From the IMG/VR virus record IMGVR_UViG_3300037419_002733: 64,000 bases of DNA. One strand, 5' to 3'. The position numbers and the translations under genes are program-made. Each line of letters begins with the position of its first letter. The stretch's first letter is position 1. Under the pieces are notes generated by a model. That model saw only the letters and a list, made by a program, of their open reading frames with translations, ran no database searches and was not told where the DNA came from. The DNA comes from an uncultured virus (IMG/VR IMGVR_UViG_3300037419_002733). Lineage: Duplodnaviria > Heunggongvirae > Uroviricota > Caudoviricetes. Below, one piece after another: positions 8,883-61,374 of the stretch.

Positions 8883-9581
8883 TCAAATATTCACTTTGAA
8901 GTAGGAGTAGGTGGGGGGTGGGGCAAGAATTCCATCGGAAGCGAGCAGGTTATTGATTTGGTCACCGAGGTATCGACCGCTAACTTCGGCATCTGCCTTG
9001 GAGTTGCGCACAGCGGTCACGAATTCCAGTTGGAGGGCAGAGACGCGAGGATAGAAAGGTCGCCACATCTGGAGCAGGTTGTTCATGTCCCAACCGGCGA
9101 ATCGGCTCCCGGCATTCGCTATCGCGGGCAGCCAAAGCATGTCCTTCTCGATGAGCCAGGTGAAGAGTTCTCGGGTCGATTTCTTACAAGTGATTCGCTG
9201 AGGCTTGCCGTCCCCGCAGCCCATGACGACACTCAGGTTCTCGCCGGTCTTCTTCCGAATGTCGTTTCCGCAACCATGAACATGAAAGACATATATCTTG
9301 GGATTCTTGGTCGTCAACCGGTTGACCATACCGATGATGGGGTCGTAGAACTCGTCCTTGACCACATTATGCTTGGCATGCTTGATGTTATTACAATTCG
9401 CCTTGTCATTTAGGACATCGACCGTCGCGTCTCGTTCCCAGCCGCGATTGATGACGGCGTTGCCGCCGCACTCCAACGCAGCATACTCGGTCATGATGTC
9501 TGTGTTCGTGTCGTCAAAGCCGTGAGGGGCAATGAGAATGACAGGATTCTTCCCGTGGACCACACTAACTCGTTCTGCCAT
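8883..9581 (-). CDS. Zn-dependent amidohydrolase-like protein (N-formylglutamate amidohydrolase/PghP-like)
   Basis: VILIAPHG..DxNT..FHVHGC..LQLE; GGAG RBS. Confidence 0.6.
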   Translation of the reverse strand: MAERVSVVHGKNPVILIAPHGFDDTNTDIMTEYAALECGGNAVINRGWERDATVDVLNDKANCNNIKHAKHNVVKDEFYDPIIGMVNRLTTKNPKIYVFHVHGCGNDIRKKTGENLSVVMGCGDGKPQRITCKKSTRELFTWLIEKDMLWLPAIANAGSRFAGWDMNNLLQMWRPFYPRVSALQLEFVTAVRNSKADAEVSGRYLGDQINNLLASDGILAPPPTYSYFKVNI

Positions 9582-10208
9582 TGCCGTCTCCTTTTAAGCG
9601 TCGTTCCGGACCCGACCTCCATGATCGAGTTATACTATACCGATAATTTAGACCTATGGCAATAGTTTTCTCTGAATTTTGCCCTTAAAAAGAATTAATA
9701 GTAGGACCACTAATAATGATATTGCGAGGCTGGATGCAGGCGAAACCCGAGAAGAAAAATCATGTCGAACAATTGGATCTGAGCGATCTGACTCCCCAAG
9801 AACGGATTTCGCTACTAAACGCCATTTTCGAGGCGAGGGCGATCTTGCTCACTGAAGGCTACAGTGTTCGCATTGGAACCCGAAGAAGTGATAATGTTTA
9901 TGGACAACTACCTGCGGGTCTTTCTCAGCTTCCACCTTCTTCAGGGGTTTAACCGGTGTGTTGGTCGTGATTTCGGTCTGATCCTATCTCGTTGATCCCT
10001 AATGACTTATGACTTTGACAAAAAATAAGGTTGACGATCGGTTTTTTGGTTTACAATCCCATCTTCCTCCGTCTATAATGGGGTGCGGCGAAGATATTTT
10101 GTGTATTCGTTTTCGAGTCATAAAATGGATGATTCAGCCGAGGTAAGACCAAAATTTCGATGTCGGTTTTTTGCAGAGTTCCCGCTGTCTGGTTCGTAGC
10201 AAGGGAAG

Positions 10209-10233
10209 CGGTTAATCCCGGATTCTCCCTTAG
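10209..10233 (+). promoter_or_regulatory. Phage-specific upstream motif, copy 1 of 6
   Basis: CGGTTAATCCCGGATTCTCCCTTAG; related copies at 11336, 14568, 18510, 20681, 27903. Confidence 0.65.
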
Positions 10234-10242
10234 GATCGACGA

Positions 10243-10278
10243 ACCTTATTCATTCCACGCCCTAGAGGCGTTTAACAC
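10243..10278 (+). CRISPR. Solitary CRISPR repeat unit
   Basis: 10250-10278 (TCATTCCACGCCCTAGAGGCGTTTAACAC) is identical to the last 29 nt of the array repeat at 59755; no second repeat nearby. Confidence 0.9.
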
Positions 10279-10651
10279 ATTCTGAGCGAACTCCGGAAGC
10301 CGCTGAGCCGTGGCGAAGATTGACAAAATTCCGACCTTCTTTCACCCCTGATTAGGATCAATCTTTATGAGATCAATCAAGGTCAAGACAAGAAAGCGAC
10401 AGGCGTATAACGAGCGTCGATTCATCGTGGTTGTAGAACACAATAACAGCGAAGAAGATACCGCCTCTGTGAGCGTCATGATCGTTGCGGGTAAACTGGA
10501 ATTTACCCGCAGTCTGGTCATGCGCAACAACACTGGATTGTCAAACCAATCGCTCATCGACCTCGTCAAATCGGTCTATGACTTAAACATCTTGGTCGAG
10601 GAAGACTGATCCACAATACGAATTCAACATATCAAACCAGGGGAGACGACG

Positions 10652-11338
10652 ATGGCGATAGAAACAATTGCCGAGATGCTGGAACGGTTTGGCGATTATC
10701 CCGGCGCGGTGAGTATCAACAACCCCAAGGCATCGGTCTATCACATCGCCCGATACATGCTGAACGAGTTCCGGGAACGAGACCTACTGCCTTGTACGGT
10801 CGAGCAGGCGATAGACCAGACGTTCAAGGAAGGCTGGTTCATCCGGACATTCTATTACGAGGCAATCGCGAACCTGGTCTATGTCGGAGCAATTCAGTTC
10901 GACGGACAGGAACTCAAGAAGGGCGTTCAGTACGACCAATGGTTGGACTACGTAGATGCGTATCTGGAAGCGGTCGCCCGATCCCGAGAATACGACCAAC
11001 GACAAGCTTCCATGTGGGAGGAAGGGCGACGGCGGGCGATCAAGGAATTGATCCTTGAAGCGTTGTGGGATTCCTTGGGCAGTTACCCCTCGGAAGGCGT
11101 CTTGATCAATCGGAGCAATTTCCGCAAGCGAGTCCAGCCGGGAGCCAAATGTTACGTGGAGTTGGGGAAACGGCATTTCTCCTTCGACTCGGAACATACG
11201 AAGCGGCGCGAGACGGTTAGCGCGAACTACTACGTTTTGGGGGAAATCGTTTCGATCGGACCCAAGACGTTCCGGGTTCGGGTCAAAGGTGTTGAACTCG
11301 ACCTCGACCACTATCGAGCAACCAAGGTGGTCGGTTAA
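10652..11338 (+). CDS. Hypothetical protein
   Basis: GGGGAG RBS, 228 aa. Confidence 0.75.
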   Translation: MAIETIAEMLERFGDYPGAVSINNPKASVYHIARYMLNEFRERDLLPCTVEQAIDQTFKEGWFIRTFYYEAIANLVYVGAIQFDGQELKKGVQYDQWLDYVDAYLEAVARSREYDQRQASMWEEGRRRAIKELILEALWDSLGSYPSEGVLINRSNFRKRVQPGAKCYVELGKRHFSFDSEHTKRRETVSANYYVLGEIVSIGPKTFRVRVKGVELDLDHYRATKVVG

Positions 11339-17056: not shown

Positions 17057-17144
17057 GAGAATCACCAATCATCGAGGCTGTGTTACAAAATAACCAGCCT
17101 CGATGATTGGTGATATCGCTTCTATTACCGATAAGGATTTCGGA

Positions 17145-17759
17145 ATGCTTGCCATGATCGAGCACAAGGGATATCACGGATGTATGGAAATCAGCCTTGA
17201 CGATCAGGTCCTTCGCGGTCAAGTCGTCGGGATTCGCGACACCATCACGTTCCAGGGCGATACCGTCCCCCAAGCCGTCCAGGCGTTCCGCGACTCGGTC
17301 GATGACTACCTTGCCCACTGCAAGGAAATCAACAAGGAACCCGAGAAGTCGGAAGGGGATCGTTACTTCGCTCGCTATGTCGAGATCATGAAGGATTTCC
17401 CCCTCCGACCGCTCCAGTCTGACGCCGAACTTGACAATGCGATCAAGATACTCAACGGCTTCCTCGACCGTGGCATTGATAATTTGAACGGCGATGAATA
17501 TGATTATTTCGATATCTTGGGCGATTTGATCCACACCTACGAAGAGACTCACGACCCCCTCCCTCCCATCCTGCCCCACGAATCGCTGCGATATCTCATC
17601 GAGGATGCCAAGCAGGTCTCGATTGCCGAAGTGGCACGACAGACCAAGACCTCTGCTCGCACGATCAGGCGTATTCTTGCTGGCGAGCAGGAAATGAATA
17701 TTCGACACATTAAGGCATTCGCCAAATACTTCAACGTCCTTCCAGATGCATTCCTCTGA
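17145..17759 (+). CDS. HicB-like + HigA-like (HTH) antitoxin fusion, no toxin adjacent
   Basis: N-term HKGYHG..GQVVGIRDTITFQG..AFRDSVDDYL (HicB-like). C-term PLRPLQSDAELD..LGDLIHTYE..AEVAR..RRILAGE..IKAFAKYFNV (HigA/Xre). Confidence 0.8.
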   Translation: MLAMIEHKGYHGCMEISLDDQVLRGQVVGIRDTITFQGDTVPQAVQAFRDSVDDYLAHCKEINKEPEKSEGDRYFARYVEIMKDFPLRPLQSDAELDNAIKILNGFLDRGIDNLNGDEYDYFDILGDLIHTYEETHDPLPPILPHESLRYLIEDAKQVSIAEVARQTKTSARTIRRILAGEQEMNIRHIKAFAKYFNVLPDAFL

Positions 17760-17771
17760 TGCCCGATCGTT

Positions 17772-17807
17772 CGTCCCTTTACCCCACGCCCTAGAGACGT
17801 CCAATAC
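17772..17807 (+). CRISPR. Degenerate solitary CRISPR repeat
   Basis: CCACGCCCTAGAGaCGTccAAtAC: 13-nt exact core and 20/24 identity to the 3' part of the array repeat; intergenic. Confidence 0.6.
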
Positions 17808-18600: not shown

Positions 18601-19722
18601 ATGTTTCACACAGCGGTTTCCCCGATCATCCATTCCGACCTTTGCAAAGAAGAGGAGGAAGTCCTTTTCGATGTTCTTCGAAAAGGAAACGTGGTCCTCA
18701 AGAAATACAGCGATTCGGTCAAGCTTCTCAACCGAATCGCCAAGTCCTTCCGCTACGCTCCCGAAGAATTCCGGGAACGTTTGTTCTTGCCGGAAAATCA
18801 TCCTCGACGCATTTCTTACCGAGGCGTGATGACGACCGAGGAATACGAGCAGGTCAAGATCCTCGGCAACGCCAAGCCGGACAAGTGGTTCGCCAGAGGT
18901 TCGATTCAAGAGTTGCGAAGGAATGTCAACACGCTGGGGCTGTCGGAGTCGGACCTCGCCAAGGTTAAAGCGGTCGCATCCGTTCAGAATCGGATCATCG
19001 AGGGCTACGTCCGGATGGTCTGCGATCTCGCACAAACGCTGGCGAGACGGTCGCACGATCAAGTCCTAGTGGATGCTGAGGTTTTGATCCAGGTGGGCTT
19101 GATGGGAGTTGTCGCGGCTGTCTGGGGGTATCGCCGCGACAACGTCTTATTCAGCACCTACGTCAGCAACAGCATCTTCCGTCACATGGTGCGGGAACTG
19201 GCTCAGACCAATCCTCAGAACAAGTTGCTCTCCCAGAACTACAAGTTGGTGTCGGCATATTATGCCGCCTCGATTGAGAACATCGAAGACAGGAGGTTCG
19301 AATCGATCGTGTCTCGGGTCAAGATCACGCTCAAGAATGGCGGGTTTCGGCGTCCTACCGACAAGGAAATCAAGCAGCTTAGAGCGGCGTTTGGTCCTGA
19401 AAGCAAGTCGACCATCCGCGATACCGAGATGCAGATCGACGAGGGTGACGGCAAGTTCATCGGCGGCATCAACTCCTGTCCCGCTCCTGTCAAGGTCGAT
19501 GTGACCTCCTTCAATGAGCTTCTCGACCGCTCCGGATTGGACGCGAAAGAACGAGAGTTGATCGAGATGGCGCAGGAAGGCAGCCATGGGTTCCAAACCC
19601 GGTGGGCTGAGAAGCATAATTGCTCGCGCACATGGGCGGGCAAGATGCTCCGGAAGGCGTGGTCCAAGATTGAGAAGGCTCGGGTCAATCAACATCGCAT
19701 TCTCCAGAAAGCGGCTCTTTGA
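18601..19722 (+). CDS. Sigma70-family RNA polymerase sigma factor
   Basis: Region 2: YVRMVCDLA..EVLIQVGLMGVVAAVWGY..FSTYVSNSI. Region 4: LDAKERELIE..AEKHNCSRTWAGKMLRKAWSKI. Confidence 0.85.
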   Translation: MFHTAVSPIIHSDLCKEEEEVLFDVLRKGNVVLKKYSDSVKLLNRIAKSFRYAPEEFRERLFLPENHPRRISYRGVMTTEEYEQVKILGNAKPDKWFARGSIQELRRNVNTLGLSESDLAKVKAVASVQNRIIEGYVRMVCDLAQTLARRSHDQVLVDAEVLIQVGLMGVVAAVWGYRRDNVLFSTYVSNSIFRHMVRELAQTNPQNKLLSQNYKLVSAYYAASIENIEDRRFESIVSRVKITLKNGGFRRPTDKEIKQLRAAFGPESKSTIRDTEMQIDEGDGKFIGGINSCPAPVKVDVTSFNELLDRSGLDAKERELIEMAQEGSHGFQTRWAEKHNCSRTWAGKMLRKAWSKIEKARVNQHRILQKAAL

Positions 19723-20745: not shown

Positions 20746-21858
20746 ATGATCATATCGCAACCAGAGCGTTTCTTCCCTGAGGCGTTGAAACTCACTCGCG
20801 AGCAGCGACAATGGCTCGCGAGTCGGAAGAACCCCAACAGCCCGTTCTACTCGATCGTCGGCAACCAAGCTGCCGTCGAGCAAGCTGAGTTGGTTGTTTA
20901 CCAGGCGAGTGGACGCCCGAACCACCGGATCAGCGACATCAACATTGCCTGGACGGGTCCGGCTGGCGTCGGCAAGACCATGTTTGCCCGCGCCATCGCC
21001 AAAGCTCTGGAACTCCCGTTCGTCGAGATCGACCCGCAGAGCGTGACTCGCCCCGAAGATATCTTCAGCAAGATTCAAGCCGTGCTCGAAGAGACGATCA
21101 TCGACGACAAGCCGCCGATCAGCCTCGCCATGCGGCAACAGGAGGATGACAGTTGGTTCGCCCCGAGTTGCGTGGTCTTCATCGACGAGGTTCACCAACT
21201 CTCCAGCAAGTTGGTCCAGGCGCTCTTGCGCGCGACCGATGTGAAGACTCACGTCCTGGAAGGCAGGACGATGAAGCTCAACACCCAAGCGATCCAGTGG
21301 CAGTTCGCCACCACCGATCGCGGGCTGCTCTTCGACGCCTTCGACACCCGGTTCATGAAGATCGAACTGAAGCCATACACCAAGAAGGAAATCGCCCAGA
21401 TCGTCCAGATACACAACGACGACCTTCCCATGGATGCGTGTGAGCGGATCGCGAGCTATTACTACCTCGTGACTCGTGAAGCCCTTCAGGCGGCAACCCG
21501 CGTGAAGTGGGAACGGGATATGCGGGGCGTCTCCTGGACCGATGCGGTCGAGGCGGTCCGAATCCGCGATGGCATCGACCAGTTCGGCTTGTCCGAGAAG
21601 CGGCTGAGGGTTTTGAAGGCGCTTGGTCACGGCAAGAAGAGCATCGCCAGTCTGGCGAGTGCGGCGGGCGTCAAGGTGGAAGAGATGGAGAAGTTCATCC
21701 TGCCGCCAATGATGACCTTCAGTAATGATTTCGAGCCGCTCGTCGAAACCGGTGCGGGCGGTCGATATATTACAGCGGCGGGACTTCGCGAATTGGATCG
21801 GCGAGGCATCCCCACAGCCGGACGGTCCGCTCTCCCCAAATTCGCGGTGGTGTCGTAA
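20746..21858 (+). CDS. ruvB: RuvB-like Holliday junction AAA+ ATPase
   Basis: GPAGVGKT, FIDEVHQL, ATT..GLL..RF, C-terminal GIDQFGL..GRYIT winged helix. Confidence 0.85.
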   Translation: MIISQPERFFPEALKLTREQRQWLASRKNPNSPFYSIVGNQAAVEQAELVVYQASGRPNHRISDINIAWTGPAGVGKTMFARAIAKALELPFVEIDPQSVTRPEDIFSKIQAVLEETIIDDKPPISLAMRQQEDDSWFAPSCVVFIDEVHQLSSKLVQALLRATDVKTHVLEGRTMKLNTQAIQWQFATTDRGLLFDAFDTRFMKIELKPYTKKEIAQIVQIHNDDLPMDACERIASYYYLVTREALQAATRVKWERDMRGVSWTDAVEAVRIRDGIDQFGLSEKRLRVLKALGHGKKSIASLASAAGVKVEEMEKFILPPMMTFSNDFEPLVETGAGGRYITAAGLRELDRRGIPTAGRSALPKFAVVS

Positions 21859-22622
21859 TGACGAAGACTAAGACACACTTTTCTGTAAATACGATTAATG
21901 ATGCTCTCAGAAAGGGCATCGTCCCCTGGTCGCGGTCGTTCCGCCTCGGGCAATTCTGCGGCTTGCCGATGAACTGTATCACCGGGGAAGTCTTCACGGG
22001 TATAATGCCGTGGATTCTCGAAACCGTAGCGATTGAACGAGGCTACCAAAGCCGGTGCTGGGGTAAGAAAACCGAGTGGGAATGCCTGGAAGGCAAGGTT
22101 GATCGGGCGTCGGGCGTCCTCATCGTCCAAGGCGGGCGTGAAGTCGCCTGGTTCAACCGTGACGCGGTCGACGTCGCTTACCCGGAGCCTGAGTCGTCTG
22201 CCGCCTACGACACGGCACAGAGGCTTGTAGAGGCTTCTGGGGCATGGGTGAAGGAATCGCCGAATCCCCGCTATCTTCTGGCGAAGAATCGGGTAGACTG
22301 GATCGCGATGCCGCGACAGGAGCATTTCCTGGACGGTGTCAATGCTTACTGGTTTACTTATTTTCATGAGATGATCCATTGGGCGTCCCTGCATCCCGAT
22401 CGCGTGGGGTGGGAGGGGACGGATCGGTCGCAGTGGGAACTCATCGCGGACTTAGGAGCCGCAATATTGATGGATTATTGCGATTTGCCGATCGACACGA
22501 ATGTCGTAGATCAAGACCATCTGCCGAATTGGATTGCTGGCATCGATGCCGATGAGACCTATTTCATCGATGCGTGTTCGGTGTCGCACCAAGCGGCGAA
22601 CTATCTGCTGTCCAAGGTGTGA
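21858..22622 (+). CDS. ardC: ArdC-like antirestriction/ssDNA-binding protein
   Basis: VPWSR..PMNCITGEVFTGI; FHEMIHW..ELIADLGAA zincin-like domain. Confidence 0.8.
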   Translation: MTKTKTHFSVNTINDALRKGIVPWSRSFRLGQFCGLPMNCITGEVFTGIMPWILETVAIERGYQSRCWGKKTEWECLEGKVDRASGVLIVQGGREVAWFNRDAVDVAYPEPESSAAYDTAQRLVEASGAWVKESPNPRYLLAKNRVDWIAMPRQEHFLDGVNAYWFTYFHEMIHWASLHPDRVGWEGTDRSQWELIADLGAAILMDYCDLPIDTNVVDQDHLPNWIAGIDADETYFIDACSVSHQAANYLLSKV

Positions 22623-42472: not shown

Positions 42473-43285
42473 TCAAAGTTTTTCTTGAATCCAGTTGATG
42501 ACGATCCTCTTCTCATCTGCGGTGAGAGGCTGAGAGGGCGGCATTGCCGTCACTCCTTCCTTCCTCAAGACCGAATTCAAAATATCCATCCTCGTACTCA
42601 AGTCGCTGTCAACCAAACTTCCATCCGAGTTGAACAACTTGACGTTATTTTTAATCTCACCGGGCTTGTGACATCCCAGACACTTCTTTTGAAACAGAGA
42701 AAGTATCTGGAACTTGTCGGCAACCTGTTGCTGGATCTGAACCGGATCGACCTGCTGGTTGGGTTGCCCTACAATCGGCATCTGTGCTTGCTGAGGCTGG
42801 GAACCTTGGATGGGCATCTGCTGAATCGGCATCTGACCCGTGGCTGGTCCCGGCTGTTGTTGTGCCTGCTGCTGAGCTTGTTCAACCGGCACGGTCTGCT
42901 GAACGGTCGTGGTTTGCTGCTGGACTTGGACCGGCATCAAAATACCATAGCCATTCTTGTTCATGTTGCTGATAATTTCCTTGGCAACCTGCTCGACGAT
43001 TCGTTCTTCCCGCTTCTGCGGCGTGACCGAAAAGTAATAGTTGATCCCGAGATCACTCAGAGGAACTCCGATGACCACCGGATAATTGATAGTCTGGTGC
43101 TGATAATGGGTGTAGTTCCCATTATAGCCGTTGTTGTAGCCTTGAACGGTATAGCCCTGTTGGATGACATTCTGCTGCGCGACATATTGCCTCGTCGGCG
43201 GGCAATACGGATGTTGCCCCAATGCGGTCACACAACTGATTCCCATTATCAGGGAAAACCACTTTATAACTCTGAAAGGGATCAT
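42473..43285 (-). CDS. Secreted protein with planctomycete-type cytochrome c domain
   Basis: Signal peptide, Gln-rich linker, CLGCH heme motif, MPP..LT..I..WI. Confidence 0.8.
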   Translation of the reverse strand: MIPFRVIKWFSLIMGISCVTALGQHPYCPPTRQYVAQQNVIQQGYTVQGYNNGYNGNYTHYQHQTINYPVVIGVPLSDLGINYYFSVTPQKREERIVEQVAKEIISNMNKNGYGILMPVQVQQQTTTVQQTVPVEQAQQQAQQQPGPATGQMPIQQMPIQGSQPQQAQMPIVGQPNQQVDPVQIQQQVADKFQILSLFQKKCLGCHKPGEIKNNVKLFNSDGSLVDSDLSTRMDILNSVLRKEGVTAMPPSQPLTADEKRIVINWIQEKL

Positions 43286-46039: not shown

Positions 46040-48052
46040 ATGTCGAACGCCGAACACGCCATCAACCACCCGCAGTTCTTCGATCACGTCAAGTATTACA
46101 CCACGTACGGTCCCAATGAGTTTTACGGCTTGAGGGTGTTGCCGGGCAACAATGGCGTGCGATTGGCGTTGCCTGATCATCCTGCCCGATATCTCTACAA
46201 CGTCACACAGTTTGACAGGGTCCAATTCATCGCGGTCGACGAGTCCCTGCACGCGGCGATTCAGGACAGGATCGCCAATCCCTTGATCTTCCATGCCGGA
46301 CATTCCCTGCCGCGAGCGCTGCGGTATCCCTATCGATGGATGCGGCGGATTTTCTGGACCAAGCCGACAAAGCCCTCGGAGATCTGGGATCTCGTGAAGG
46401 GGCAGGACATCAGGTGGAAATTCGAAGAGGGGAAGATCAGTTTCTACCTGTCGGATTACCCTATCCACTTTTGGACCATTGACATCATCGCTTCTAAATC
46501 AGACATTGAGGCGAGTTATCTGCAAAAATTCCCTCATTCTGCTTATGCTAAAGCGTTCAGAGAGACCAAAATTAGCATGTGGGATTACCTGCTCAGCAAG
46601 CGGGTCGACCTGCAGGTGATCGCCGACGAGGAATTGAAGAAGTATAACGAAAAGCGAAAAATGTCTCTTGAATGTGACATCGCTCAGCAGGTGAGGGATA
46701 ATATCGCGGCAAAGGAGCAAGTTTCGTCGCCTTCGCCCGATCCCAAACCCACAGAGAAGCCCAAGAAGCCCGTTCCTAAGGGAGGTCCAGATATCAGGGT
46801 CGGAGACACGGTCAGGGTGGTCCGGAATACAGCGGACGCGATGAAGGATCGCAAGTTGGAGTATCTTCAGCCGGGCGATGAGGTGATCGTGTGCGAGGTC
46901 GACAACGATTGGACCCATTTCTCACTGGCTGGAGTGAAGCCAGCGATCGGGTACAAGCGAATCTCGGCACAGGAGGAGGTCGCACACGTCCACTACCTGC
47001 CGATGGAGGACGTGGAACGAGTGCCGGATTACTGGATGATCGTGGCGAAAGACGGAAAACCTTGGCATATCTATAAGAATGGCAACCTCTTCAGCACGAT
47101 CGACAAGACTCAGGTCTACGTTAGAGATATCAATGAACATGTGAGAATTGGAGATCTCGTCGAATATCGGGGACGAGGCAATCGCCCTTTCATCCATTAC
47201 CGAGATCATTGTCATCCTCTCGATCTCGTTCCTCGCGCAGCGTGGGTTCCGCATGGTCACATTGGTTATGAAATCGGGATCAATGTCGATTGCTATCATG
47301 GCAACCTTCGACTTACGGAGATACAGGTCCTCGTTCGTGACCGGGCATTGACCGCGATGGCGTCGGAAAACTCCAAGACCGAGGACCCATCCAGGAAGAC
47401 CATCACTCTGAATCATTGGTTGATTGAACAGATTAGGGAACTGTCGCCGAGCAAGTGGGCGATTTATCACAATGGAGAGTTCATCGCAGCCGCCGACAAT
47501 GACTATGGGATCATCAAAAGTTTGTGGCAGGAAAATGATATCTTGGATTGGTGGTCTAATAATCGGTCTATATACCCGTCATCTCAGATTTATCGGAATG
47601 TGAAGGAATCCTTCGAGTTTCTTTGTCACGCCAACAAGGATTCGACGATCGGATTGGTCGATCCCCAGACAGACGCGGAACGAAGTCACATGTCGTACGC
47701 GAATCCCAAGTATCAGCTTTCTCCTGAGGAATGGGAATTGAGACGTACATCTCTCTTGAAGATCGAAGAGAGCCGGAAGTCTCAAGCCCAAGAGATGATC
47801 AAGGATCTCGCCGAGTCCCTCCCCAAGGTCGAAGAGAAAAAGAAGCCGTACGTCCCCAAGGTCGGCGACCGGGTCCGAGTGGTCAAGAACACTTCTAATG
47901 CCTATCGTCCCGACAATTCCAGCGAGCATCTCGAACCGGGAGACGAGGTGGTGATCAGCCGCTTCTTCGACGACGAGAAAACCCGAGTCTGTTATAAGAT
48001 GTTGGGCGGAGGTATTAACAACATCGACATCTCCGACATCGAACCAGTGTGA
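46040..48052 (+). CDS. Multidomain hypothetical protein with duplicated SH3/KOW-like domain
   Basis: IRVGDTVRVVRNT..LQPGDEVIV and KVGDRVRVVKNT..LEPGDEVVI. Confidence 0.75.
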   Translation: MSNAEHAINHPQFFDHVKYYTTYGPNEFYGLRVLPGNNGVRLALPDHPARYLYNVTQFDRVQFIAVDESLHAAIQDRIANPLIFHAGHSLPRALRYPYRWMRRIFWTKPTKPSEIWDLVKGQDIRWKFEEGKISFYLSDYPIHFWTIDIIASKSDIEASYLQKFPHSAYAKAFRETKISMWDYLLSKRVDLQVIADEELKKYNEKRKMSLECDIAQQVRDNIAAKEQVSSPSPDPKPTEKPKKPVPKGGPDIRVGDTVRVVRNTADAMKDRKLEYLQPGDEVIVCEVDNDWTHFSLAGVKPAIGYKRISAQEEVAHVHYLPMEDVERVPDYWMIVAKDGKPWHIYKNGNLFSTIDKTQVYVRDINEHVRIGDLVEYRGRGNRPFIHYRDHCHPLDLVPRAAWVPHGHIGYEIGINVDCYHGNLRLTEIQVLVRDRALTAMASENSKTEDPSRKTITLNHWLIEQIRELSPSKWAIYHNGEFIAAADNDYGIIKSLWQENDILDWWSNNRSIYPSSQIYRNVKESFEFLCHANKDSTIGLVDPQTDAERSHMSYANPKYQLSPEEWELRRTSLLKIEESRKSQAQEMIKDLAESLPKVEEKKKPYVPKVGDRVRVVKNTSNAYRPDNSSEHLEPGDEVVISRFFDDEKTRVCYKMLGGGINNIDISDIEPV

Positions 48053-59459: not shown

Positions 59460-59464
59460 TTTAG

Positions 59465-59754
59465 TTGGCAAAAGTCGTTCGACTTGGTATACTAAATGCT
59501 GGGAAATCAAGTACCTTTCCAGGATCAGAGAGTAAGATTGCCAAATTGTCTTAAATCTCTTTCAAAATAAGGACTTAAGGCTGAAAGTCCGAATCCCAGG
59601 TGCATGATTCTTCGTAAGTTGTTCTTTGACAAGACGTTCTGGCTATGATGGCTCACGCCAATGCTTCATCTTATTGCCTTGTTGATGCCGATGAGCAAGA
59701 TGCTTGAAAACCAAGTGTCTAAGTGGTTGGACATCAAGAGCTTAAGATGAGGCA
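59465..59754 (+). promoter_or_regulatory. CRISPR leader with promoter
   Basis: TTGGCA-17nt-TATACT at 59465-59493; non-coding; next to the best-conserved repeats. Confidence 0.7.
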
Positions 59755-60631
59755 GTGATCCTCATTCCACGCCCTAGAGGCGTTTAACACGACCCTAATA
59801 CAGCTTGGCTGTGGGAGCGTATCTGGTGATCCTCATTCCACGCCCTAGAGGCGTTTAACACACGAGGTGCGGCGGATGTATGGCATCACGCACGAGGTGA
59901 TCCTCATTCCACGCCCTAGAGGCGTTTAACACGCCCGGTGGCGCAGATCAGGGAGGTGGTCCTTGGATGGTGATCCTCATTCCACGCCCTAGAGGCGTTT
60001 AACACCGAGAACATACCTTCGACGTGTACGCTCAATCACGGTGATCCTCATTCCACGCCCTAGAGGCGTTTAACACATGCATCTTCGAGTAGATGCCCTT
60101 GAAATAGTGGAGTGATCCTCATTCCACGCCCTAGAGGTGTTTAACACATACCAAATTATTAGGATATTGCTAGACGAAGAAGTGATCCTCATTCCACGCC
60201 CTAGAGGTGTTTAACACTCATCCGGTCCGCGCGACACGACATCGGACGCGCCGTGGTGATCTTCACTCCACGTCTCAGAGGCGTTTAACACAAGCGGTCA
60301 GTTGAGGACGTCAACCAATAAGTTAACCTGATCCTCACTCCACGCCCTAGAGGCGTTCGACACAGGACGAAAACCAGGACGTCCGGCGAATTATGCACGC
60401 ATGACTTTCATTCCACGGTCTAAAGGCGTTTAACACTGTTGAGTTCGATTTCAAATGAAAGTAACCCTCACTCCACGCCTTAGAGGCGTTTAGCACACCA
60501 AGCCGGGAGGAATCGTGTGTTGGCAAGAGGGTGATCCTCACTCCACGCCCTAGAGGCGTTTAACACGGACCGCCATCGGAGTTGAAAAGCCTCTGGTGAT
60601 CCTCATTCCACGCTCTAGAGGCGTTTAACAC
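59755..60631 (+). CRISPR. CRISPR array, 13 repeats / 12 spacers, type I-B-like repeat, no cas genes in window
   Basis: 36-nt repeat GTGATCCTCATTCCACGCCCTAGAGGCGTTTAACAC at 59755, 59826, 59897, 59970, 60041, 60112, 60182, 60256, 60328, 60401, 60461, 60531, 60596. Spacers are 34-38 nt except one of 24 and one of 29 nt. Degeneracy is concentrated in the right half. Confidence 0.98.
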
Positions 60632-60666
60632 TTTGCGCCGCGTCCCTCTCCATCTAAGACTATCTC

Positions 60667-61374
60667 TCATTCCACACTCGAAGAGTGTTCAAACAACTGC
60701 TCAACCCGCCTCGACTTCTCCCCCGTCCTATCCTTGATATCGGTCTTGGTCTCAATCTCCCATACACAAGTGAAATCCTCAGGAGCACTATACTCCGAGA
60801 CCAAGACCGTATTCTCAACCGACCTCTTCCGCACCCATTCCCAGAACCGATCATGGTCGAACCGACCCACCGAATACCCCACCGTCCCCCGATAAGGAGG
60901 ATCGCAGTAGATCAATGACCCGCTCGGCACCTCGACCTCATTGTAACCCCCGCACTCGAACCGCACATCCCCTAAGCCCATCATCTTCTTCTTCAACGAA
61001 TTCCTGGCGTTCGATGCGTAATTACGACCAGTCTTGTTCCTAGCGTATCCGCCAAACCATTTACCACTGTTACTACAGCCGAAACCCACGAAGCCACGCA
61101 ATGCCATGTCCGTCCCCGCCCGTATCAATTGATACTCCGACTCTGTGACCACAGCAGGCGGCTCCCAGCCCGTCTGTAACGCCCGCCACATCGCAATCAA
61201 CTCCGGATGCAGGTCGCTCGCGATACGCATCGACCCACATACATTGCTCATGACCCAGCACGCACCGCAGAATGGCTCCCAATACGCCTGACCATCCCCA
61301 AGCCGCGAATTGATGTAACCAGCCAATTCCCGACAGACCTTTCCCTTGCCCCCGAAATACTGAATAGCGATCAC
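60667..61374 (-). CDS. D12-class DNA adenine methyltransferase
   Basis: QYFGGK, EPFCG, IYCDPPY, LVSEY. Confidence 0.92.
   Translation of the reverse strand: MIAIQYFGGKGKVCRELAGYINSRLGDGQAYWEPFCGACWVMSNVCGSMRIASDLHPELIAMWRALQTGWEPPAVVTESEYQLIRAGTDMALRGFVGFGCSNSGKWFGGYARNKTGRNYASNARNSLKKKMMGLGDVRFECGGYNEVEVPSGSLIYCDPPYRGTVGYSVGRFDHDRFWEWVRKRSVENTVLVSEYSAPEDFTCVWEIETKTDIKDRTGEKSRRVEQLFEHSSSVE

Follow-up and report, generated by a model that had tools for sequence, protein, structure and literature searches.

Solitary CRISPR repeat units carried by viruses have been catalogued as candidate RNA anti-CRISPRs (Racrs), with 2,103 viral candidates listed (Camara-Wilpert et al. 2023, PMC10651486). For RacrIF1, inhibition was traced to the 70–76 nt that precede the Cas6 cut, with no need for the handle (PMC10651486). 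The Racr table of the same article lists many type I-B units and one plasmid unit with a MYXAN-type 3′ end, and non-targeting crRNAs were reported to reduce interference through competition (PMC10651486). A further class, the Cracrs, numbers 219 predicted candidates, I-B among them, with candidate hosts in Pseudomonadota, Bacillota, and Actinomycetota. Cracrs are defined by at least nine PAM-proximal matches to the spacer of a host CreA/CreR, or by a target in a cas promoter. The crlRNAs and the Cracrs are both competitors for Cas proteins, and both repress a promoter that has a flanking PAM.

Here we analyzed a lone repeat within a stretch of 64,000 nt of jumbo-phage DNA (hereafter the window, meaning that whole stretch). 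A reading of this DNA made from the sequence only had proposed a Racr or a regulatory crRNA, and these proved to be the right known classes for a solitary unit of I-B (MYXAN-like) type. We give roughly an even chance to the unit being a small RNA gene that mimics the crRNA of the host type I-B (MYXAN-type) CRISPR system.

The solitary repeat unit and its genomic setting

The window corresponds to C1:53,643–117,642 (minus strand) of a virus record of 253,022 nt, which IMG/VR classifies as a provirus and for which CheckV estimated a completeness of 43%. The gene content of this record includes 34 tRNA calls, tRNA synthetases, IF3, and many small genes without assignment. A tRNA with a CUA anticodon at C1 118,149–118,222 is possibly an amber suppressor, and the TAG stop is used by 11 of the 167 called genes of at least 150 aa. 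An RNA repair set was also observed, namely a Ro60-like gene, two RNA ligases, Thg1, and a large tRNA cluster (L062:12979–14598; L059:5265–6356 and 9410–10027; tRNAs upstream in the L064:5683 region).

Of the 36 nt of the array repeat, the unit contains the 29 at the 3′ end (29/36 nt, 81% coverage at 100% identity), and it lies at a distance of 49,512 nt from the first array repeat. In the full 36-nt register there are six mismatches, every one of them inside the first 7 nt and 5′ of the hairpin. The identity stops exactly at the 3′ end of the repeat and spans just its functional part, while hairpin and handle are identical to those of the leader-proximal array repeats. Comparison with the array repeats by blastn gave E values of 4e-11 to 7e-10, which excludes a chance origin of the identity. 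The features of the locus are listed in Table 1.

Table 1. Features of the unit, its surroundings, and the related repeats (window positions unless preceded by C1)
Feature	Position	Strand	Remarks
Sigma70-like promoter TTTACA-18-TATAAT, 11/12	10050–10079	+	Consensus match only
Weak hairpin and U-run	10136–10172	+	z −0.86, no better than chance; not called by terminator scan
Phage-specific promoter-like motif copy	10208–10238	+	Weight matrix score 23.0
Solitary repeat unit	10243–10278	+	10250–10278 identical to array repeat, first 7 nt replaced
5-bp repeat hairpin ACGCC/GGCGT, presumed Cas6 site	10257–10271	+	Fold prediction
8-nt 5′ handle, intact	10271–10278	+	Sequence; 8-nt length taken from type I systems in general
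20-nt spacer-like guide (tail)	10279–10298	+	Matches no array spacer
GCCGC/GTGGC 3′ hairpin without U-run	10299–10314	+	Not called by terminator scan
80-aa ORF, first gene behind the unit	10367–10609	+	No family match
228-aa ORF	10652–11338	+	No family match
Degenerate lone copy	17772–17807	+	13/36 mismatches, broken pair in the stem; begins 12 nt past HicB-like/HTH gene
Leader of cognate array	59460–59754	+	13-nt word common with Cas12-array leader, similar register
Cognate array	59755–60695	+	13 repeats and degenerate 14th, 13 spacers, no adjacent cas gene
Degenerate lone copy	C1 120,120	−	11 mismatches
Degenerate lone copy	C1 143,574	+	10 mismatches

The ACGCC/GGCGT stem folds as in the array repeat (−6.7 kcal/mol, with 1 of 200 shuffles equally good), and its pair probabilities were 0.64–0.99 in 11 of 12 transcript models and 0.24–0.28 in the remaining one. 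From this stem we infer that Cas6 cuts between 10270 and 10271. In type I systems, the crRNA 5′ handle is generally 8 nt long. For the second hairpin, the pair probability was 0.8–0.99 if the RNA starts at 10238 or 10243 and 0.11–0.95 if it starts farther upstream, and in these fold models a processed RNA of ~44 nt would probably end there. A search of Rfam returned one match (E 3.1), far under the family cut-off, and an inverted repeat between guide and motif was discarded after it gave no strong fold (z −0.30).

The unit is intergenic, between an ORF at 8883–9581 (−) and the 80-aa ORF, and a 78-aa ORF at 9716–9952 stops 290 nt before it. A second repeat was sought within the 150-nt flanks, where the best ungapped matches were 17/36 and 15/36, and random 150-mers mostly gave 15–16. 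In terms of the SRUFinder rules, no other full or partial repeat lies within 100 bp (by an ungapped test, not the SRUFinder code), and with thresholds of 90% for both identity to a known repeat and coverage of it, the unit would count as a "partial" match. Array spacers reached a best 20-nt identity of 7 in the downstream flank and 11 in the upstream flank, and the 13-nt leader word had at best six mismatches within 200 nt upstream.

The sequence-only reading was thus accurate on the anatomy: the 29 nt identical to an array repeat some 49.5 kb away, the hairpin, the handle, the 20-nt tail, the GCCGC/GTGGC hairpin, and the intergenic location were all recovered. It had listed a decayed array among the findings that would refute it; of the leader and further repeats expected in such an array, no trace was found in the 200 nt upstream and the 150-nt flanks, respectively. 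Its description of the repeat as solitary stands for the flanks and has to be amended for the record, where three further degenerate lone copies were detected.

Only 0.015 such copies per genome were expected from shuffled cores, and the three lone copies are therefore not attributable to chance. Each of the four lone copies, the unit included, occupies a gap between called genes and has the orientation of the gene that follows, with about 20% of 36-mers falling outside called genes. Two of them start 4 and 12 nt past a stop codon and another ends 28 nt before a start codon. The motif occurs at the 10243–10278 unit and is absent from the three degenerate copies, two of which have a broken stem pair. 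Stem pair probability in these three was at most 0.19, and three of five array repeats tested were also poor in context. The same block as two of the lone repeats holds a HicB-like and HTH fusion (17103–17759), a sigma-factor-like ORF (18601–19722), and an ArdC-like antirestriction gene (21858–22622), and this block has the appearance of an early region devoted to anti-defence. A CsrA-like gene (L060:8201–8401, C1 ~143,200–143,400) runs divergently from the fourth lone repeat.

Misassembly of the unit is unlikely. Near-identical DNA was found in nine soil and rhizosphere metagenome runs, four of which are possible sources of the record. A 729-nt contig from run X5, which is not flagged as a possible source, matches 10251–10979 with zero differences and reaches 28 letters to the left of the joint between repeat and tail, short of the 31 letters required for joint support. 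The left joint of the unit is spanned by no contig among the 32 matches listed. Contigs from four DNA runs, at low depth, show one differing letter among those listed (17275) and none within the unit. Another IMG/VR record has the same sequence (100% identity) for 10,023 nt on and about the unit, but it may share the same source data. This second record was also the sole match when relatives were sought via the neighbouring 232-aa gene. An alignment of IF3 retrieved 37 loci, 36 of them with at most 52% identity, and IF3 relatives of 61–73% identity were present on unlinked contigs; no relatives were found via the phage Cas12; and the motif gave four single matches in unrelated contigs that had no tblastx link to the phage.

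The promoter-like motif and transcription of the unit

The motif had been described as present in six copies, one of them 10 nt before the repeat. The count of six is correct for the window, and in the whole 253-kb record the weight matrix identified 63 copies on the strand of the unit and one on the other. Likewise, the motif is indeed directly upstream, at a distance of 11 nt from the identical stretch or 4 nt from the 36-nt register. At the threshold used, five shuffled genomes together gave one match, and genome positions within 15 nt behind any motif copy make up about 0.2% of the total. Most copies (57/63) are located in a block of small genes 12–47 kb beyond the window end (mostly C1 7,000–41,100), and 59 of the 63 are followed by a start codon with a ribosome-binding word at a median distance of 34 nt (range 19–128). 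Position 30 of the motif is a pyrimidine in 50/63 copies and position 31 a purine in 57/63. In five bacterial genomes no enrichment of the motif was detected (four matches with one mismatch versus four for the control). Taken from these sequence patterns, the motif can be inferred to be a phage promoter that starts transcription at motif position 31, here ~10238.

With regard to score, the copy at 10208 belongs to the weaker group (23.0 within a range of 19.5–38.7; 7/63 copies score at most 23.1). Its distance to the start codon is 128 nt, the longest of the 59 copies as opposed to the median of 34 nt, and the unit therefore fills the place of a first cistron. Another motif copy precedes the sigma-factor-like ORF at 18601–19722 (PHROG E 2e-7). 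The 3′ half of the motif resembles the repeat hairpin minus one base (19.5 bits vs 11.4 ± 2.0, 0/150 shuffles), a post hoc observation. A hairpin role for the motif itself was dropped, the pairing within copies being 2.73 vs 2.61 in shuffles (p 0.036).

Three sigma70-like sites were found within 9560–10700, where shuffles gave 1.4 ± 1.1, and the consensus match listed in Table 1 possibly provides a second start, by host polymerase, at ~10086. According to the fold model, the weak hairpin and U-run that follow could end this transcript ahead of the repeat. The scan called no terminator in the stretch from the unit to the ORF that starts at 10367, and the 80-aa ORF is probably co-transcribed with the unit. 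The neighbours of the unit are small ORFs to which Pfam, PHROG, and PADLOC assigned no family, and none of them was recognized as a known acr gene by these searches.

CRISPR arrays, host search, and guide targets

The later repeats of the cognate array carry 1–7 mismatches each. A loose tandem pattern yielded 44 loci, nine of which had real arrays; these came from five genomes and have the same 5-nt-loop hairpin and 3′ pattern as the phage repeat. A gene scan of two of these genomes revealed that the arrays adjoin Cmx6, Cas3, Cas8, Cas7, Cas5, and Cas4-Cas1, that is, type I-B MYXAN (12/12 proteins). By resemblance, the phage repeat is probably of type I-B MYXAN as well. Their repeats differ from that of the phage at 13–18 of 36 positions, so none of the five genomes is the host; the nearest bacterial repeats overall differ at 13–20 of 36. 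One Planctomycetota MYXAN repeat (L124/L125) likewise starts with GTGATC. Lone MYXAN repeats were also observed outside the array in two bacterial I-B loci, L006 at ~451 (+) and L119 (minus, offset 9533), the former upstream of cas6. Both are candidate CreR elements by sequence, and CreR-like control may exist in the MYXAN family.

An exact-type pattern for a cognate host array had 0 matches in GTDB contigs, and the 23-nt core at up to three mismatches had 0 in 401 Planctomycetota genomes. Cmx6 scored above the cut-off in 8 of these 401 genomes and in 0/15 of one order. A metagenome scan for the repeat gave five single, array-free matches without similarity to the phage, which were treated as chance. 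As for borrowed genes, ClpX-like, FolD, and GluRS obtained their top scores in a Planctomycetota genome (among five genomes from four phyla) by small margins, a weak hint that Planctomycetota might be the host.

No type I cas genes were found in 285 scanned ORFs of the record (341 were called; those below 70 aa were mostly left out), and 10 MYXAN Cas proteins searched by tblastn gave one match (E 0.43). Their lack in an incomplete record (43%) is not proof of absence. Since none was found, the host Cascade is the likely partner. The spacers of the cognate array had no convincing match among phages and plasmids, the one hit being at E 0.9.

The earlier proposal that the phage borrows the Cascade of its host is incomplete, because the phage has its own Cas12 and a second array. 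Specifically, a 924-aa ORF whose RuvC region is of Cas12 type is located at C1 43,330–46,101 (minus; L058:5330–8101), ~11 kb past the window array, and matches Pfam at E 5.5e-15 and the PADLOC models of Cas12b (E 2e-34) and Cas12h (E 1e-21). Its closest full-length relatives among 1.84 billion representatives share 26–31% identity, and a search of 5.8 billion returned nothing except itself. The best solved structures were the entries Cas12X2, Cas12X, and Cas12j19/CasJ19 (E 4e-44 to 5e-27), and a literature search on these names found nothing relevant. Next to cas12, at C1 ~42,575–43,189, are nine repeats of another 36-nt sequence that is identical to the window repeat at 17/36 positions. With an array of its own and a different repeat, the phage Cas12 is therefore an unlikely partner of the unit.

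The leaders of the two arrays have a 13-nt word in common, at window 59698–59710 and C1 ~43,234–43,246, 45–57 nt ahead of the first repeat, which suggests that one host adaptation machine may serve both arrays. Spacer 7 of the Cas12 array matches C1 ~46,280–46,307 at 24/29 nt, ~200 nt upstream of the cas12 start and just upstream of a promoter-like site. The score of 19, the best of 25 queries, compares with at most 17 in 120 shuffled spacers, and self-repression of cas12 through this spacer is possible. A degenerate lone Cas12 repeat with nine mismatches was noticed at C1 42,312–42,347, ~230 nt beyond the end of the Cas12 array.

As a stand-in for the PAM in the guide search we used 5′-AYG-3′, which is favoured by the related Synechocystis I-B system (PMC11096372). 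A search for guide targets had been suggested by the sequence-only reading, and it yielded none that was convincing in the phage or in non-cognate bacterial loci. In the phage genome there was no target with an AYG PAM, the best self match being 15 with a shuffled range of 11–17. Two matches in coding DNA were set aside for lacking this PAM, a 12-nt exact one at C1 118,833 and one of 11/12 at window 38670. Against 16 loci (246,351 nt) from MYXAN-bearing, non-cognate bacterial genomes no convincing target was found, and one SRU1 match with an ATG PAM was rejected for a mismatch in the seed. Matching of the guide to the motif copies (11/15) was no better than that of shuffles (84/150 as good). 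We consider the existence and the absence of a real target about equally probable.

Readings of the unit and comparison with described systems

As a crRNA mimic, the unit would be transcribed from ~10238, with the motif acting as a phage promoter, and host Cas6 would cut its RNA at 10270/10271. The resulting product of ~44 nt, consisting of the 8-nt handle, the 20-nt guide, and the 3′ hairpin, would load host Cas5, Cas8, and Cas7 into a short complex that does not cut and that competes with the immune crRNAs of the host. Should the guide pair with a host promoter that has a flanking PAM, cas genes or a CRISPR-guarded toxin would also be repressed, as by Cracr RNAs. The intact hairpin and handle argue for a mimic, as do the solitary and intergenic placement right behind a motif that precedes ~60 phage genes and the confinement of all six mismatches to the side 5′ of the hairpin, in a genome whose later array repeats themselves carry 1–7. 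Counting against it are the weak motif copy, the cognate host array and the guide target that our searches did not find, and the fact that blocking Cascade would hamper the phage's own array, for which the same Cascade would be needed. Moreover, the broken stems in two of the three other lone copies resemble decay.

As a neutral scar, the unit would be a piece of repeat acquired by recombination with the array of the phage or the host (e.g., between spacer and protospacer) that persists between genes, the degenerate copies being older scars. The four copies, with 6, 10, 11, and 13 mismatches, do resemble an age series, the motif is found at just one of them, and stems are broken in two. In addition, the likeness between the repeat core and the 3′ half of the motif (19.5 bits vs 11.4 ± 2.0) could favour recombination at that place, and Shmakov et al. 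remark in a preprint that spurious duplication may account for many of the lone repeats within CRISPR-cas loci. However, none of the present spacers or leader words matches the flanks of the unit, the identical stretch covers just the functional part and stops precisely where the repeat does on its 3′ side, and the unit is placed in sense at the inferred transcription start and is followed 20 nt later by a 3′ hairpin; we regard a scar as unlikely. As no terminator was called after the unit, its RNA may instead be a mere mRNA leader. The Cas6 site would then belong to the leader of the early genes from 10367, where cutting or Cascade loading would alter stability or translation and would sense an active host I-B system. 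All four lone copies are intergenic and in sense to the next gene, two just after stop codons and one before a start, but intergenic placement is also expected from selection against broken genes, and genes in these regions are mostly on one strand. Folding of the stem is poor in the other three copies (at most 0.19), although this is also true of three of the five array repeats tested in context, and the downstream genes are without known function, which leaves this explanation with a rather small probability. A combined version, to which we assign a similarly slight likelihood, holds that host Cas6 would process early transcripts at lone repeats in messenger leaders, free a crRNA mimic, and switch the downstream genes by host CRISPR state, the phage time-sharing or sensing Cascade. 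The genome would feed Cascade via its 13-spacer array, and the separate Cas12 system would be untouched by a type I decoy.

The position of the cut bears on which piece of the RNA might be active. In a decoy of RacrIF1 type it would be the upstream piece, capped by Cas6 and bound by a Cas7 filament without Cas5 and Cas8. The stem is intact, the sigma70-like promoter would give ~185 nt of upstream RNA, and inhibition by RacrIF1 is due to the upstream product (PMC10651486). Yet from the motif start there are ~33 nt before the cut as opposed to 70–76 nt in RacrIF1, the weak hairpin and U-run at 10136–10172 may halt the sigma70 transcript, and the handle is perfectly kept although it is dispensable in RacrIF1; such a decoy appears quite doubtful to us. 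With only ~33 nt from motif start to cut, the downstream piece is therefore the likely product, and in our analysis the crRNA mimic (Cracr-like) seems a better fit than the RacrIF1 mechanism. Highly improbable, finally, is a role of the unit and the window array in serving the phage Cas12, or of the unit as an attachment site at which the phage would integrate into an array of its host. The 924-aa Cas12-type ORF 11 kb past the array and the IMG/VR provirus class point in this direction, but the Cas12 has an adjacent array of its own with a repeat just 17/36 identical, and no tyrosine integrase was found in the record (43% complete).

In the literature searched, with most subscription papers outside its coverage, neither the element itself nor a tested MYXAN-type Racr was found; among RNA anti-CRISPR units of the MYXAN branch, that literature contains one that is predicted and none that is tested. 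The core of the phage repeat was not found in the accessible portions of the Racr supplementary files (PMC10651486). If functional, the unit would bring the MYXAN branch of type I-B into the range of RNA anti-CRISPRs, and it would show an RNA of this kind under a phage-specific promoter in a genome that also has a cognate array and a Cas12 of its own. This would raise the question of how one phage both uses and blunts a single Cascade. The principle (Racr, Cracr) is already published, and what the unit would add is one well-constructed example of it.

On the one hand, the unit is like Racrs and viral solitary units in being an intergenic lone phage repeat downstream of a putative promoter, with no type-matched cas genes found nearby and an intact predicted Cas6 stem. 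On the other hand, a transcript from the adjacent promoter would have little RNA ahead of the cut, and the unit covers 29 of 36 nt, has no recognized acr neighbour, and belongs to a genome that also has a full cognate array and three further lone copies. Viral mini-arrays and jumbo-phage arrays that borrow host Cas (review PMC11656645) are comparable to the cognate 13-spacer array without cas genes, whereas they have at least two repeats and full-length spacers against other viruses, and the unit has one repeat. The degenerate repeat, short guide, and 3′ hairpin are shared with CreA/CreR and crlRNAs (bioRxiv 10.1101/2023.03.10.532045, 10.1101/2024.12.27.630466, 10.1101/2023.03.03.530964), but those are located in or beside cas loci with a nearby PAM-flanked target, and the unit is in a phage with no local target. 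Compared with Cracrs, the unit differs in that no PAM-proximal target of at least 9 nt was found for it in the phage or in the 246,351 nt of non-cognate MYXAN loci, and its 3′ hairpin is without a U-run. It is like them in being a phage-encoded single repeat-like part that retains the portion needed for processing, followed by a spacer-like part of ~20 nt and a 3′ hairpin. CracrVA1 and the I-C crlRNAs, whose 3′ ends lie in the hairpin loop, have the same build as the unit, which by its sequence can be placed as a candidate within the published class of viral solitary repeat units (Racr/Cracr).
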